DNA of 64,000 bases from Escherichia phage vB_EcoM_SA20RB. Shown here piece after piece: positions 2,459 to 64,000 of the stretch. Position 1 is the stretch's first letter. Every line of letters starts with the position of its first letter. The position numbers and the translations under genes are program-made. The stretch is taken from the sequence record OL960581. One strand, given 5' to 3'. Below the pieces are notes generated by a model. The model was given only the letters and a program-made list of their open reading frames with translations. It was not told the DNA's origin and did no database searches.

Positions 2459-4278
2459 TATTGGCTCATCCATTCTTTACGAAGGTCAGCATTATCTCCC
2501 ATGAGCATTTCAAAAAGCTCCTTCCAATTCTCAGGAAGTTTAACAACATCATATACTGGATTTTGAATCATCTCACGATACTCAGATTTTTCCAAAGAGC
2601 CAAGTCCCTTAATATAACGGATGCTATGTTTAGGTAGAGCATCTTTAGCACTCTCATATTCAGCGACTGTATAAAACCATTCTTGTTTTTTACCGACCTG
2701 AGCGATGATTACAGGAGTTTTGACAAAGCGAATTCTTCCTTGTTCAAACAGTTCTGGCCAATTACTGAAAAATCCGAGCAGAGAAGGATAAATGCTTCCT
2801 AGACCATCATGGTCAGCATCGGTCATAATAGCAATATTATGATAATTCAAGTTTTCAGCTTTTTCACCAAGAACTAATCCAGTGATTGCGCAAATATCAA
2901 ACAGTTCTTTATTTTTAAGCATATCAGCATATGACATACCCCAACTGTTGAGAACTTTACCACGCAATGGATAACCGCCATGAAGTTCTTTATCACGAAC
3001 ATCAATAAGATATCCGATAGCAGAATCACCCTCAGTCAAGAAAAGAGTCGTGTCAGCATCTTTACCACAAAGATTCGCTTTAATATGTTTATGAACCTTA
3101 GCTTTAGAAGCCTTTTTAGCTGCTTTAGTTTCTGCTGCTTTTTCTGCCGCCAATTTACGAGCCAAGGCAGCTTCAATAATTGGCATCAAAATAGCTTCAT
3201 TATTTAGAATAGCGCGTGAAATCTTTTTAGCATCAAGTTGAATATGACTACGGATTTCACCAAATGGAGAAGTCAAACGCTCTTTAGTTTGAGAATCAAA
3301 TCGCATGTTTTTCATATCACGAACAAACATAACGATAGTCAAACATTCTTTAACACGTGCTTTAGTTACATCAATTTTGAACTTACGTTTGATTTGTGGA
3401 ATAAGGTCTTCACAAATATCATCCATAACACAGTCAATGTGATGGCCACCATTCTTAGTGTGAATGTTATTCACATAAGTTAATTGGCGAAATCCATCCG
3501 GTGAACGACCAACCGCAATAGAACAATTTTCTTGTTCTTGAACAATAGCATGTTCATCATACTGTCGTGCATATTTCTTAAAATTACCCTGAACCTTTTT
3601 ACCATTAAAGGTAAATTGAATATCAGGATAAACAACAGCAAGTGTCTGGAGACGATCTAGTGTAATGTCAAGATAAACTTGGGACAGCTCATTAGTTTCA
3701 AATGACATAAAATCTGGAATGAAAGTAACACGAGTTCCTTTCCATTTTCCAGGAATAGTTTCCCAGGATTTATTTTCCATGCCATTTGAACAACGAACTA
3801 CAATATTATTTTGACCATCACCAGTTTCACCAACAAACATCACAGAAAAAATGTTAGTTAAACTAGAACCAACACCATTCATACCACCGGTGACACGTTC
3901 TTTATCATCACCGAAGTTACCACCTGCTTTTGGAATAGTCCAAGCAGCAACTGGACCAGGAATTTCTTCACCGGTAGGTGTTTTAACCATCGCTTGTGGA
4001 ATACCGCGACCGTTATCTTCAACTGTTACCTGATTATTTTTAATGGTAACATTAATTTTATTCGCGAATTTAAACTTAGTACGAATACCTTCATCTACTG
4101 AGTTATCGATAATTTCATCAATAAGCTTAACAAGACCAGGTACATACTGAACACTTTCCCATTTACCAAACAGAAAGCGCTCATGCATTTCATTAGCAGA
4201 AGAACCAATGTACATGCCGCTACGCTTTTTGATATGTTCAATATCGCTCAGAATTTTAATTTCATTCTTAATCATCAC
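2458..4278 (-). CDS. 39: DNA topoisomerase II large (ATPase) subunit, uninterrupted gp39+gp60 equivalent
   Basis: 606 aa; starts (M)MIKNEIKILSDIEHIKKRSGMYIGS like gp39 and ends ...TDADHDGLGSIYPSLLGFFSNWPELFEQGR...RKEWMSQ like gp60, contiguous across the T4 bypass site. Confidence 0.93.
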   Translation of the reverse strand: MMIKNEIKILSDIEHIKKRSGMYIGSSANEMHERFLFGKWESVQYVPGLVKLIDEIIDNSVDEGIRTKFKFANKINVTIKNNQVTVEDNGRGIPQAMVKTPTGEEIPGPVAAWTIPKAGGNFGDDKERVTGGMNGVGSSLTNIFSVMFVGETGDGQNNIVVRCSNGMENKSWETIPGKWKGTRVTFIPDFMSFETNELSQVYLDITLDRLQTLAVVYPDIQFTFNGKKVQGNFKKYARQYDEHAIVQEQENCSIAVGRSPDGFRQLTYVNNIHTKNGGHHIDCVMDDICEDLIPQIKRKFKIDVTKARVKECLTIVMFVRDMKNMRFDSQTKERLTSPFGEIRSHIQLDAKKISRAILNNEAILMPIIEAALARKLAAEKAAETKAAKKASKAKVHKHIKANLCGKDADTTLFLTEGDSAIGYLIDVRDKELHGGYPLRGKVLNSWGMSYADMLKNKELFDICAITGLVLGEKAENLNYHNIAIMTDADHDGLGSIYPSLLGFFSNWPELFEQGRIRFVKTPVIIAQVGKKQEWFYTVAEYESAKDALPKHSIRYIKGLGSLEKSEYREMIQNPVYDVVKLPENWKELFEMLMGDNADLRKEWMSQ

Positions 4279-4327
4279 TTATCCTCGTTTGGTTTCGGGA
4301 ATATTATACTCCAATAATCATAAAGCT

Positions 4328-4345
4328 AAAGGCCCGAAGGCCTTT
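4328..4345 (-). terminator. UUCG-tetraloop hairpin after gene 39
   Basis: AAAGGCC-UUCG-GGCCUUU on the minus-strand RNA. Confidence 0.6.
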
Positions 4346-12629: not shown

Positions 12630-12812
12630 TTATTTTGCCCAGGGAGCCCAGGGCGGAGGGTCAAGATGGTATGAAGCTAGTTCTTCTAGAAGAGCATCTG
12701 GGGCTTCAATTCCATAATTCTGTAATACTATACGGTACTCTTTCTTATAATCACTAGAATCATTCTGGATATTCGTAGAATGATTATTTTCTAACATCTC
12801 AAATAAATCCAT
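12630..12812 (-). CDS. hypothetical small protein
   Basis: 60-aa ORF downstream of an early promoter; modA.x slot. Confidence 0.45.
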   Translation of the reverse strand: MDLFEMLENNHSTNIQNDSSDYKKEYRIVLQNYGIEAPDALLEELASYHLDPPPWAPWAK

Positions 12813-12820
12813 ATTAATTC

Positions 12821-13291
12821 CTAGCGATAAAAACCAAAACGACGATTAGTTTCAATAATCTTTCTTTCTTCTTCGGACATTCTCCAGCGTAGTCCAACAT
12901 CAAAATGAGCCCAGACCATCTTAACAAATGCATTTATATCTTTAATATCTTCAATAATAAATGTTTTACTTTTAGAAGGTTGACTAGCTAATTTAACTTT
13001 ATCGTCTTCAAACAAGTCAAAAAGACCATATTCATGAGCCCTTTTATAGCCTTTAATAGTTAAAGCTTCAGAAGAAGAAAACGGTGAATCAGTATTCTGC
13101 AAAATATCTTCAGTATGCTTTATAATTAGAATAACATTTTCTGGATATTTTCTTTCTTTTATATCTTTAATTAAAAGATCCGGATTTTCTGCTAAAGGAA
13201 TAATTAATGAGCACTTTTTATCAAGTGTATTTACTGATTTACCTTCTTTAGACATAAATTCTATTGAATAATGTTTTGCTACTTCAATCAT
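12821..13291 (-). CDS. hypothetical protein
   Basis: 156-aa ORF in the minus-strand operon. Confidence 0.5.
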
Positions 13292-61251: not shown

Positions 61252-61613
61252 TACAAACTCTCAGTAAAGGTACGAGCGATAACGTCGCGCTGCTGTTCCG
61301 GAGTTAGAGAGTTAAAGCGAACTGCATAACCGGATACACGGATGGTCAGCTGCGGATATTTTTCCGGATGCTTAACTGCATCTTCCAGAGTTTCACGACG
61401 CAGAACGTTAACGTTCAGGTGTTGACCACCTTCAATTTTAACTGTAGGCTGTTGCTCAATTTCAATTTCACGGGCATGCAAACCATAGAAAATTTCTGGG
61501 TCTACAAAAGAGTCCTCTTTAAAGGTTTTAGAGACAATAATTCGTGCTTGAATACCATCTTCAAAATAAATAGTACCTTTATGTGTGCCTTCAAGAATTT
61601 GATATGCTTTCAT
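61251..61613 (-). CDS. vs.6: autonomous glycyl-radical cofactor (GrcA/YfiD-like)
   Basis: 120 aa ending ...[36 protein letters not shown], near-identical to the E. coli YfiD/PflB glycyl-radical C-terminus. Confidence 0.8.
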
Positions 61614-61948: not shown

Positions 61949-62491
61949 TCATTGCATTCCGATTACGAAAAACTGCGGACGAGTAATACCACCAATGCAG
62001 CATTTACTATTGCAGCAGTGTTGCACAGTTTCAATATGAATATCGTAAATTTTATCCATATCAGGAGATTTAACAGGCTCATCGATTATATACAAAATTC
62101 GAGAAAGCGATAAACCTCTGAACTTGCTACCTCTATTACCAACAAAACTACGGACAGAATCAGTAAATAAACGGAATCGAATATCATCGCTAGAATAACG
62201 AGAAAATTCTTTTTTAATGCGGCCCGCAGAAATTTTAGCGTAAGCTGAAGTATTAGAAAGAACAATAACTGTTCCACCATCATACAACCAATTAGCGGCA
62301 AAATTAGTTACTGCAGTTGATTTACCAGATTGTCTGCCACCATCTAAACGAAGTGTACAATATTCTTTAAATAAATGCGACGAATCAGGTACATAAAATC
62401 CACTATTACAAATTTCTTCTACTCTAGCATCAGAATGGTGTGTAAAAGCATTCATCAGGGATAGATAAGGACCAGTTAAAAATGTTCTCAT
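61949..62491 (-). CDS. P-loop NTPase (vs.8 slot)
   Basis: 180 aa; Walker A GGRQSGKST; Walker B ILYIIDEP. Confidence 0.55.
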   Translation of the reverse strand: MRTFLTGPYLSLMNAFTHHSDARVEEICNSGFYVPDSSHLFKEYCTLRLDGGRQSGKSTAVTNFAANWLYDGGTVIVLSNTSAYAKISAGRIKKEFSRYSSDDIRFRLFTDSVRSFVGNRGSKFRGLSLSRILYIIDEPVKSPDMDKIYDIHIETVQHCCNSKCCIGGITRPQFFVIGMQ

Positions 62492-62631
62492 TTCTTCTCT
62501 CTAAGTTTGGGCCATTCCATGGCGCATGAATTGTCCATTTCTGTATTTACCCATTACCGCACTTGGGCTCGACCTTATTACAGGTTGGCGGGAATCCCTC
62601 ACAGAATCATGAGGTCCAGGTTGTTCCCATA

Positions 62632-63105
62632 TTATTTGAACGATTTAACGTACTGAATAGAACCTTTACTATTCACGAAAGCGATTTTACCATTTTTATT
62701 ATACATGGTAGCAGTACGCTGATAGCCATAAGTTTGCTTACCAGATTGATAACCAACTAATGCAAAATTATCTTCACCCATTTTATTCTGTTTAGCACGA
62801 ATGCGTTCATGACCATGTGCCATAAGAACCTTAGCATCACCAGTTGCAATGGATCTACGAGTTTTTTCATCTTCAACTGTATTAACAAAGTCGTCAAATG
62901 AATCAAATTTAGCATGAGATTTATTATACAGTTTTCCATCTACTGCATAATTATATCCCTGTACATCCATCTCAACTTCTGTACCATCATCCAATACAGC
63001 AGTGATTTTCTGTCCTTTTTTAAATTTCAAAAGATCAGTAAAAGATTCAGCAATAATTTGAGAATTAATAGCTGCTTCAGTAATAAATTCTTGATATGTT
63101 TTCAT
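62632..63105 (-). CDS. internal head protein with capsid targeting sequence
   Basis: 157 aa starting MKTYQEFITEAAINSQIIAE (T4 CTS consensus MKTYQEFIAE with I-x-E protease sites); the ipII/ipIII slot next to e. Confidence 0.7.
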   Translation of the reverse strand: MKTYQEFITEAAINSQIIAESFTDLLKFKKGQKITAVLDDGTEVEMDVQGYNYAVDGKLYNKSHAKFDSFDDFVNTVEDEKTRRSIATGDAKVLMAHGHERIRAKQNKMGEDNFALVGYQSGKQTYGYQRTATMYNKNGKIAFVNSKGSIQYVKSFK

Positions 63106-63159: not shown

Positions 63160-63189
63160 ATACTATCACAGTTTTAGGAGAAAGTAAAC
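63160..63189 (-). promoter_or_regulatory. early promoter embedded in a stem-loop, upstream of the internal protein gene
   Basis: GTTTAC, 18 nt, TAGTAT; 8-bp inverted repeat AACTGTGA/TCACAGTT around the -10. Confidence 0.6.
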
Positions 63190-63193
63190 AACT

Positions 63194-64000
<807 letters not shown>

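Follow-up and report, generated by a model that had tools for sequence, protein, structure and literature searches.

A candidate family of pseudoknotted non-coding RNA lies upstream of vs.8 in T4-like phages and recurs in other enterobacterial phages

Escherichia phage vB_EcoM_SA20RB (OL960581) carries, within the 64,000-nt stretch analyzed here (the window), a 140-nt spacer (62492–62631, minus strand) that is very probably, judging from comparison with other phages, a functional structured RNA rather than a deletion scar or a coding sequence. The window is a segment of a T4-like (Tequatrovirus) genome with its genes on the minus strand, and the spacer separates the stop codon of an internal virion protein gene (ip; stop codon 62632–62634) from the ATG (62489–62491) of a vs.8-like open reading frame (ORF). 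The element is novel as a family, and the explanation that best accounts for it as a whole is a new family of structured phage non-coding RNA encoded on the gene (minus) strand, which we regard as having an even chance of being correct. An original prediction, made from the letters of the window alone, had offered a deletion scar, a structured leader or a small RNA; the structured part of the latter two is borne out, in the form of a covarying pseudoknotted RNA that is compatible with both roles. It is this widespread, unannotated RNA family that merits following, rather than the missing denV gene.

Secondary structure and covariation

The structured core comprises 88 nt on the minus strand (62541–62628), from the 5′ strand of helix P1 to the 3′ strand of a pseudoknot. 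It was delineated with a covariance model (R1) and three alignments (A2, A3, and A4) of loci collected from phages and contigs, which are designated by L-numbers. R1 detects a single copy in the window, at 62541–62597 (75 bits, E 9e-20), and the 5′ hairpin of the core, which lies beyond this match, was added from alignments A4 and A2. Covariance analysis across relatives, proposed as a check in the original prediction, showed that P1, P3, P4, and the pseudoknot all covary on the gene strand.

The 5′ hairpin P1/P2 (62590–62628) is supported by covariation. In P1 (GGGAA/UUCCC, 62624–62628 with 62590–62594) each of the five pairs varies on both strands, and 94.8% of alignment cells are paired, the variants including AAAGG/CCUUU, AAAGC/GCUUU, AAAGA/UCUUU, GGGAG/CUCCC, and GGGG/CCCC. 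P2 (CCUCA/UGAGG, 62610–62614 with 62597–62601) closes the loop UGAUUCUG; it becomes CCUUA/UAAGG in L053, and other genera have a longer two-part hairpin instead. P1 and P2 are the nested helices first noticed by eye, and both are real and covary in relatives.

The second stem, P3/P4 (62549–62589), encloses the junction J. P3 (GCC/GGU, 62587–62589 with 62549–62551) is paired in nearly all sequences of A3: columns 10–48 are C-G in 33, G-C in 6, and unpaired in 1, and columns 11–47 are C-G in 31, U-A in 5, G-C in 2, A-U in 1, and G-U in 1, with none unpaired. An unshifted P3 register was rejected, the reported register fitting more lineages in a slide control. A GCCCA/UGGGU helix that had been proposed earlier does not survive: depending on the pair it is broken in 5–17 of 40 sequences, its core pairs lack compensation, and UGGG pairs instead with the GCC(A) just 5′ of the ACCU hairpin, forming P3. 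P4 (ACCU/AGGU, 62582–62585 with 62572–62575) is 100% paired in A3, with one A-U to G-C swap, found in a second copy; its loop, GUAAUA, is an instance of a conserved GURANA hexaloop.

Junction J is a 19-nt, near-invariant bulge (62553–62571) running from P4 to the 3′ strand of P3, with the sequence CGAGCCCAAGUGCGGUAAU, also given as CGAGCCnnnGnGCGGUAAn. Its pattern AAGGUC..GC..GCGGUAA is kept across T4-like phages, Vequintavirus, and further lineages, and J is the likely functional site. Many loci were collected with patterns that fix parts of J; those collected with a looser pattern read C[G/A/U][A/-]GC[C/G/A/U]NNN(G)N before GCGGUAA.

The pseudoknot pairs CUG (62617–62619), in the 5′-side internal loop between P1 and P2, with CAG (62541–62543), 5 nt past the 3′ strand of P3; across variants this tail starts 5–9 nt after P3. 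Among 17 distinct T4-like variants the three central pairs show 0 mismatches (C-G 17; U-A 6, C-G 8, A-U 2, and G-C 1; G-C 14 and C-G 3), a pairing reached by 0 of 5000 shuffles. The loop:tail duplex is more stable for native than for swapped combinations (−6.75 vs. −5.03 kcal/mol, p = 3e-6). Pairs were counted in Python; MAFFT on the 16-nt mini-sequences gave spurious gaps. The strands are replaced in concert, from CUG/CAG in the window to CCUG/CAGG (L057), CGCCGA/UCGGUG (Merlin), AAACCG/CGGUUU (L054), ACAC/GUGU (L023), CGC/GCG (L022), GCCAGC/GCUGGU (Vequintavirus), GUGAGGG/CCCUUAC (L049), AAACCA/UGGUUU (L078), CUCCGG/CCGGAG (EcoPhCCP1), and CGGA(A)/(U)UCCG (a group of 46-kb phages).

G-U pairs are confined to the gene (minus) strand, which is therefore the folded strand. 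The evidence for structure is comparative, not energetic. The spacer had been described as hairpin-dense, an impression that does not exceed chance by minimum free energy (MFE; z-scores of +0.53 for the transcribed strand and −0.81 for its complement). RNAalifold applied to the whole T4-like alignment recovered P1 and otherwise only a long-range helix between invariant segments, which is purely hypothetical.

Distribution among phages

Queried by blastn with the 140 nt, a search that the original prediction had also suggested, 1,124 phage records match, T4 included, and 5,426 E. coli genomes yield none. The matching phages include Tequatrovirus and other T4-like genera on Klebsiella, Enterobacter, Citrobacter, Yersinia, and Salmonella. 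Spacer positions 40–84 also match Vequintavirus (rV5-like) phages at 86–95% identity, as well as a 44-kb phage; this level of identity between T4-like phages and Vequintavirus applies to a 43-nt core, the flanks being unrelated. When the window, T4, Merlin, and EmilHeitz are aligned, CCAACCUGUAAUAAGGUCGAGCCCAAGUGCGGUAAUGGG is conserved in all four with few substitutions, and outside it the sequence is unrelated or unequal in length. Pattern scans of IMG/VR and metagenomes, followed by the covariance model, extended the distribution of the core to 44–70 kb enterobacterial phages and several uncultured phage lineages.

In T4-like genera the core always lies just upstream of vs.8 or an ip-like gene. 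Over all lineages the following gene differs, being vs.8, an ip-like gene, phrog_3330, or tRNAs, and in some cases there is only a terminator. Vequintavirus, EcoPhCCP1, KpCHEMY26-type phages, and others have the core but not vs.8, and CAU_ECP01 has vs.8 but not the core. Because its copy number among T4-like phages is 0, 1, or 2 and its downstream genes differ, the element is shown to be an autonomous module that shifts as a whole from one genomic context to another. Klebsiella phage W15-2 (L029) has two copies, at 2011–2067 and 2534–2592. In Jiaodavirus, one of two copies precedes an ip-like gene and the other vs.8. Uncultured T4-like contigs of 172–178 kb (L066, L080, and L082) have tandem copies, the second with a shortened junction, AAGGUCAGCCCGCGGCGGUAA.

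The element is restricted to phages. The sole plasmid match is one 137.6-kb record (CP057073, an E. coli "plasmid") of the size of a Vequintavirus genome. Two records of 137–141 kb titled "Campylobacter phage" (MG065635, C12; MG065662, A142) carry a Vequintavirus-type copy, and all three records look like Vequintavirus genomes under other labels. A host origin, or a host base-pairing target, was rejected on the absence of any match in the 5,426 E. coli genomes. Matches of degenerate patterns in GC-rich metagenome contigs and metagenome-assembled genomes, including soil, were set aside as chance matches in coding DNA (L031, L033, L037, L040, L042, L044, L045, L051, L055, L059, L064, L070–L072, L089, L091, L092, L094, L095, L102, L105–L107, L110, L113, L118–L121, L123, and L125). 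These loci lack the flanking hairpin and P3, and those scanned with R1 were negative.

Association with tRNA genes and terminators

In at least ten non-T4 groups the element has tRNA genes on its own strand no more than about 600 nt away; these are Vequintavirus and a sister group, the 46-kb group, and L047, L069, L078, L111, L098, L097, L101, and L109. It sits between tRNA-Thr and tRNA-Gly in L047 and between tRNA-Glu and tRNA-Met in L109. In L111 the model match starts 33 nt past the end of tRNA-Ser and is directly followed by an intrinsic terminator, and in L098, L097, L101, L069, and L078 the element is 50–300 nt downstream of a tRNA (L101 is also grouped with L109, between tRNA-Glu and tRNA-Met). 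Intrinsic terminators follow 20–110 nt after the element in L078, L116, and L028/L117. The window and other T4-like phages do not share the tRNA linkage, the T4 tRNA cluster starting about 6 kb from the element.

In Vequintavirus the tRNA array begins about 0.6 kb downstream of the element, which itself follows genes for polynucleotide kinase and a phosphoesterase. As read from the sequence, it is followed by three hairpins, a sigma-70 promoter, and then an unrelated ORF (phrog_3330). In Vequintavirus and the sister group (L050, 4600–4900; L003, 2920–3000) the motif TAGAGGGCTTGAWAGTGC flanks the element on both sides, and the promoter after the element is strong (TTGACA-17-TAAAAT/TAAACT) and drives an ORF with the N-terminal sequence KKRRRRGRP, which is AT-hook-like.

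In KpCHEMY26-type and 46-kb phages an 8-bp stem encloses the element within a non-coding island of about 800 nt, with a tRNA after it. The island of Klebsiella phage KpCHEMY26 and its 46-kb relatives (L076, 8340–9130, minus strand) contains nested long stems, GUGCUCUUAUCGUUGUG... paired with ...CACAAC..AGGUAAGAGCA, which enclose the element together with one or more further units of about 100 nt that match no Rfam family. A tRNA-Met gene comes next. Two element-bearing contigs also carry group I introns (RF00028), L109 at 4112–4333 (minus strand, 91 bits) and L078 at 12784–13079 (plus strand, 54 bits).

Comparison with known RNAs

ARAGORN found 0 tRNA or tmRNA genes in the 64-kb window, and the possibility that the element is itself a tRNA or tmRNA was rejected, since neither ARAGORN nor Rfam tRNA models match it in any lineage and the neighboring tRNAs are detected. 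With all models of Rfam 15, among them every curated riboswitch and self-cleaving ribozyme class, the window has 0 matches at gathering thresholds; at E ≤ 10 the region 62300–62800 gives three chance-level matches (E > 1), none on the core, and 13 non-T4 loci give no match on the element. Literature searches by sequence string and topic found no description of it; the SegB amplification paper and the Minerva preprint deal with loci other than this one. A presumed likeness of GUAAYAAGGU...UGCGGU to the 16S rRNA 3′ end was dropped; the structural contexts differ, and chance alone would give about 6 such 10-mers with one mismatch in that comparison.

By analogy, the element seems to behave most like the T4 species 1 and 2 RNAs (rnaC and rnaD) and, in T4-like phages, also like the gene 32 leader and the EAR RNA; it resembles all of these and would be a member of none. 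Like the element, rnaC and rnaD are phage non-coding RNAs, about 120–140 nt long and of no known function, and they lie next to same-strand phage tRNAs at the end of a cluster, an arrangement mirrored by the element in L111, L098, L069, and L109. Unlike them, it has no homology to either by the model (paralogy was rejected, R1 finding nothing in T4 68000–76000 at E ≤ 1), and in T4-like phages it lies about 6 kb away, inside an mRNA, with no known stable product.

EAR of Bacillales is an intercistronic pseudoknotted RNA, and both EAR and putL/putR of phage HK022 act within their own transcription unit. The element shares with them the character of a structured RNA located within a transcription unit, but has no sequence or Rfam relation to either, and its place relative to tRNA arrays and terminators is inconsistent. 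The pseudoknot of the T4 gene 32 mRNA leader is likewise conserved and placed 5′ of an early gene in T4-like phages, and it is likewise absent from Rfam (PMC10690425). It always travels with gene 32 and binds the gene 32 product, whereas the core of the element also occurs without vs.8; an autoregulatory operator of the gene 32 type was therefore rejected, strict co-occurrence with a regulated gene being absent. A 2023 catalogue of 10,006 unnamed viral candidate structured RNAs (csRNAs; PMC10690425) describes similar entities, namely conserved, covarying intergenic motifs in IMG/VR contigs, some beside tRNAs or upstream of genes, and may contain the element.

A proposed function and alternatives

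The element could be a factor-binding, largely trans-acting RNA, a reading that we infer tentatively and hold at somewhat less than even confidence. The pseudoknotted scaffold would present the invariant J and P4 loop to a conserved factor, from either the enterobacterial host or the phage, that is conceivably a protein, possibly a tRNA-directed enzyme or nuclease. In lineages other than the T4-like phages a discrete small RNA would be released by tRNA-processing enzymes or ended by a terminator. In T4-like phages the module would be embedded in the early transcript running from ip to vs.8 and would have gained a 3′ extension by the vs.8 ribosome-binding site; this extension can pair with J, so that occupancy of the junction could couple to vs.8 translation.

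If this model is right, T4-like phages, Vequintavirus, and other enterobacterial groups share an autonomous pseudoknotted RNA module whose core is more conserved than the surrounding genes and therefore points to a shared molecular target. Its repeated placement in tRNA operons would also bear on what tRNA arrays do for phages, be it codon supply or escape from tRNA-directed immunity. A stronger version of the proposal is that the element is a new RNA class of T4 and unrelated virulent enterobacterial phages in which J is catalytic (a self-cleaving ribozyme) or serves as a decoy or inhibitor of a host tRNA or translation factor; we consider it improbable. A decoy could, for example, be an RNA counter-defense against tRNA-targeting immune nucleases, which would explain its retention among phage tRNA genes.

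Several points weigh against a new non-coding RNA family with such a function. No report of a discrete RNA from the locus was found in the literature, and classical labeling of T4 low-molecular-weight RNA reportedly gave only eight tRNAs and species 1 and 2, which makes it less likely that T4 itself has an abundant stable RNA of this kind. The T4-like spacer has, by scan, no dedicated promoter or terminator, and the element may act only in cis there. The invariance of J is partly built in by the search patterns used to gather the loci, the MFE of the spacer on the transcribed strand is no better than that of shuffled sequence, and both the mechanism and the binding partner are matters that we infer.

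The element might alternatively act in cis as a leader, either a translational operator or a riboswitch-like sensor, in which a ligand or protein on the core would make the extension switch access to the ribosome-binding site, and which in other phages would act through the following terminator. We judge this unlikely. The 3′ extension on which it depends (62509–62540, minus strand; AAAUGGAC...GCCAUGGAAUGGCCC) is kept in T4-like genera, where it adjoins the vs.8 ribosome-binding site, and is absent from other phage families. It can alternatively form 12 pairs with J, and its variable positions keep the pairing: 26 of 35 sequences are compatible, through one-sided pyrimidine-for-pyrimidine changes opposite G, with a few exceptions and 0 double compensations. 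In T4-like phages the element is, moreover, always immediately 5′ of a start codon, and the upstream stop codon lies 0–3 nt from P1 (3 nt after ip in the window), so that terminating ribosomes would melt P1 and the pseudoknot. In L078, L111, and L116 an aptamer-like core is followed by a terminator and, in L078, then by a ribosome-binding site and an ORF.

The fold resembles an aptamer in that the junction nucleotides J and the P4 loop are near-invariant, but a consistent position upstream of functionally related genes, as expected of a riboswitch, is not found; the downstream genes are unrelated (vs.8, ip-like, phrog_3330, tRNAs, or none), and in Vequintavirus a sigma-70 promoter sits between the element and the next ORF. 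As for an expression platform, the pairing of J with the extension is possible yet uncompensated, terminators are present in some lineages, and no antiterminator, that is, no alternative pairing of core and terminator, is visible. Phages of the CAU_ECP01 type keep the extension without the core, which weighs against a cis-acting leader.

Escherichia phage CAU_ECP01 (L030, 2500–2563), AV118, and FL23 have lost the core and retain the extension GGGGUAAAUACAGAAAUGGAC...GGCCC before vs.8; in CAU_ECP01 vs.8 is split and annotated "endoribonuclease". The extension contains two GGA motifs (62534–62536 and 62516–62518; spacing 18–19 nt), which presumably resemble CsrA sites. It also contains the GCCAU-GGA-AUGGC hairpin (62511–62523) that had been picked out from the letters; it exists in the window as a possible helix, of which relatives keep only 3–4 pairs, none of them compensated.

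Self-cleavage is a still less probable function. A ribozyme or processing element cutting polycistronic or tRNA-operon transcripts would part the ip mRNA from the vs.8 mRNA or free neighboring RNAs. A compact pseudoknot with an invariant junction in varied contexts is characteristic of twister, pistol, and hatchet-type ribozymes, and the element has a compact pseudoknotted fold with invariant junction nucleotides and a varied context in phages, always on the same strand as its neighbors. No known Rfam 15 ribozyme class matches it, however, even at E ≤ 10, no signature of a cleavage site can be named, and tRNA arrays are already processed by RNase P, RNase E, and RNase Z.

It is very unlikely that the element is a processive antitermination RNA of the HK022 put or Bacillus EAR type, which would modify the transcribing RNA polymerase so that it passes stretches that are untranslated, Rho-sensitive, or interrupted by terminators, for example tRNA arrays or T4 delayed-early regions. 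Like EAR it is an intercistronic pseudoknotted RNA, or lies in untranslated regions beside tRNA arrays, and it precedes tRNA arrays in Vequintavirus and the 46-kb group and terminators in several lineages. Against this, it is downstream of tRNAs in L111, L098, L097, L101, L069, and L078, being in L111 the last element before the terminator, and it has no sequence relation to known antiterminator RNAs.

Nor is a role at the level of DNA, such as a hotspot for recombination or homing or a site of protein binding, at all probable. The element does border a hyperplastic region in which the presence of ip genes and denV varies, and its copy number is variable, but G-U pairs limited to one strand, together with compensatory changes in four helices, point to selection acting on the transcribed strand folded in single-stranded form.

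The annotated start of T4 Vs.8

In the T4 annotation the element forms residues 1–39 of the 219-aa Vs.8 (NP_049732; NC_000866), and the 1986 record X04567 likewise annotates the 219-aa ORF, already with an alternative start. The window has a 33-aa ORF with a GTG start in the same frame (62501–62602), the largest on the gene strand among spacer ORFs that are all of chance size. That the element is protein-coding, whether as these 39 N-terminal residues or as the 33-aa ORF, is nonetheless scarcely credible. The T4-style frame is open in 1 of 38 T4-like sequences, T4 alone; elsewhere it is closed by TAG, TAA, or TGA, the upstream in-frame peptides differ among relatives, and indels of 1, 2, and 17 nt, none a multiple of three, shift the frame. 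Variation tracks base pairing, not codons, and the family profile (phrog_1488, 177 positions) begins at an internal Met of Vs.8.

Comparison of T4 (L001, NC_000866, 4793–4940) with the window (62492–62602) accounts for the difference. In T4 a 9-bp stretch is repeated in tandem (CTTATAGAG x2) and TAT replaces TAG just before the conserved ATG, and because of these its frame is open through the element; in the window the upstream frame is shut by TAG at 62501–62503. The 39-codon extension is almost certainly an annotation artifact and T4 Vs.8 is probably annotated 39 codons too long. The original prediction had named alignment to the interior of an intact gene as an outcome that would point to a simple remnant; such an alignment exists formally, within this overextended T4 Vs.8.

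In the most intensively annotated phage, an overextended ORF (ORF 64.0, vs.8) has thus concealed the element for about 40 years. Should the model hold, the internal ATG ought to become the annotated start of Vs.8 in T4 and in many annotations derived from it. Some GenBank records name ORFs called at this position "RegB domain protein" or "hypothetical protein"; adding the element to RNA family databases would, on the same model, end such calls.

Relation to denV

The window lacks denV, as originally noted: tblastn with T4 DenV over the 64 kb gives a best E of 1.5. The spacer had been placed where T4 carries denV, which is roughly correct as to position, but T4 has both denV and, after it, the same 140 nt; the T4 copy begins at the base after the denV stop codon and ends at the internal ATG of vs.8. 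Gene order is e-denV-ip-spacer-vs.8 in MLF4 and denV-spacer-vs.8 in Merlin and SonariX. Thus, although denV is missing from the window and in T4 lies directly upstream of the corresponding position, the notion of a denV deletion scar has virtually no probability, since T4, MLF4, Merlin, and SonariX carry denV plus a nearly identical spacer, the T4 DNA to which the element aligns lies 3′ of the denV stop, outside denV itself, and the element also occurs in phage families without denV at that locus.

Both denV and the ip genes are variable in this hyperplastic region, and the spacer stays on the upstream side of vs.8. The absence of denV from the window is unrelated to the spacer, and the link to the lack of v-gene function in T2-type phages is a separate matter. 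Within Tequatrovirus denV is polymorphic, being either between e and the ip gene (MLF4, BP32, and P8) or absent.

Genomic surroundings of the element in the window

The spacer had been described as a GC-richer stretch with no ORF and no T4-type promoter, and this description stands, with exact bounds of 62492–62631 and ORFs of chance size only. Promoter and terminator scans found no sigma-70-like promoter or intrinsic terminator inside the spacer, and neither a TATAAATA late promoter nor a MotA box (TGCTT) was seen when its sequence was inspected by eye. The spacer has a GC content of 47.1%, the window as a whole one of 34.4%, and only 0.26% of all 140-nt windows are equally rich. The description of the spacer as richer than anything around it goes slightly too far, since a stretch in the GrcA-like vs.6 near 61268 reaches 50.7%.

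Downstream of the element on the minus strand, the vs.8 translation start region (62489–62508) contains the purine-rich GAGAGAAGAA, the in-frame TAG described above, and the ATG. The vs.8-like P-loop ORF itself (180 aa, 61949–62491) is 87% identical to T4 Vs.8; its residues 3–180 align to positions 2–177 of the 177 in phrog_1488 (function not assigned), and it has a weak P-loop match to a terminase large subunit. This ORF is probably not part of the function of the RNA element.

Upstream, the ip gene (62632–63105, minus strand) encodes a 157-aa internal virion protein of the DUF7412 type (phrog_3155), neither T4 ipII nor ipIII; its likeness to ipII is limited to the N-terminal 75 residues (33% identity). 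The lysozyme gene e lies beyond it (63194–63688, minus strand). Between the two, a candidate T4 early-type promoter, GTTTAC-N18-TAGTAT (63160–63189, minus strand), was read from the sequence upstream of ip and is the likely source of the transcript carrying the element. We take this motif to resemble the T4 early-promoter consensus; the consensus scan of the window did not list it. The same motif also occurs just upstream of the element copy or remnant in Klebsiella phage W15-2 (L029) and CAU_ECP01 (L030).

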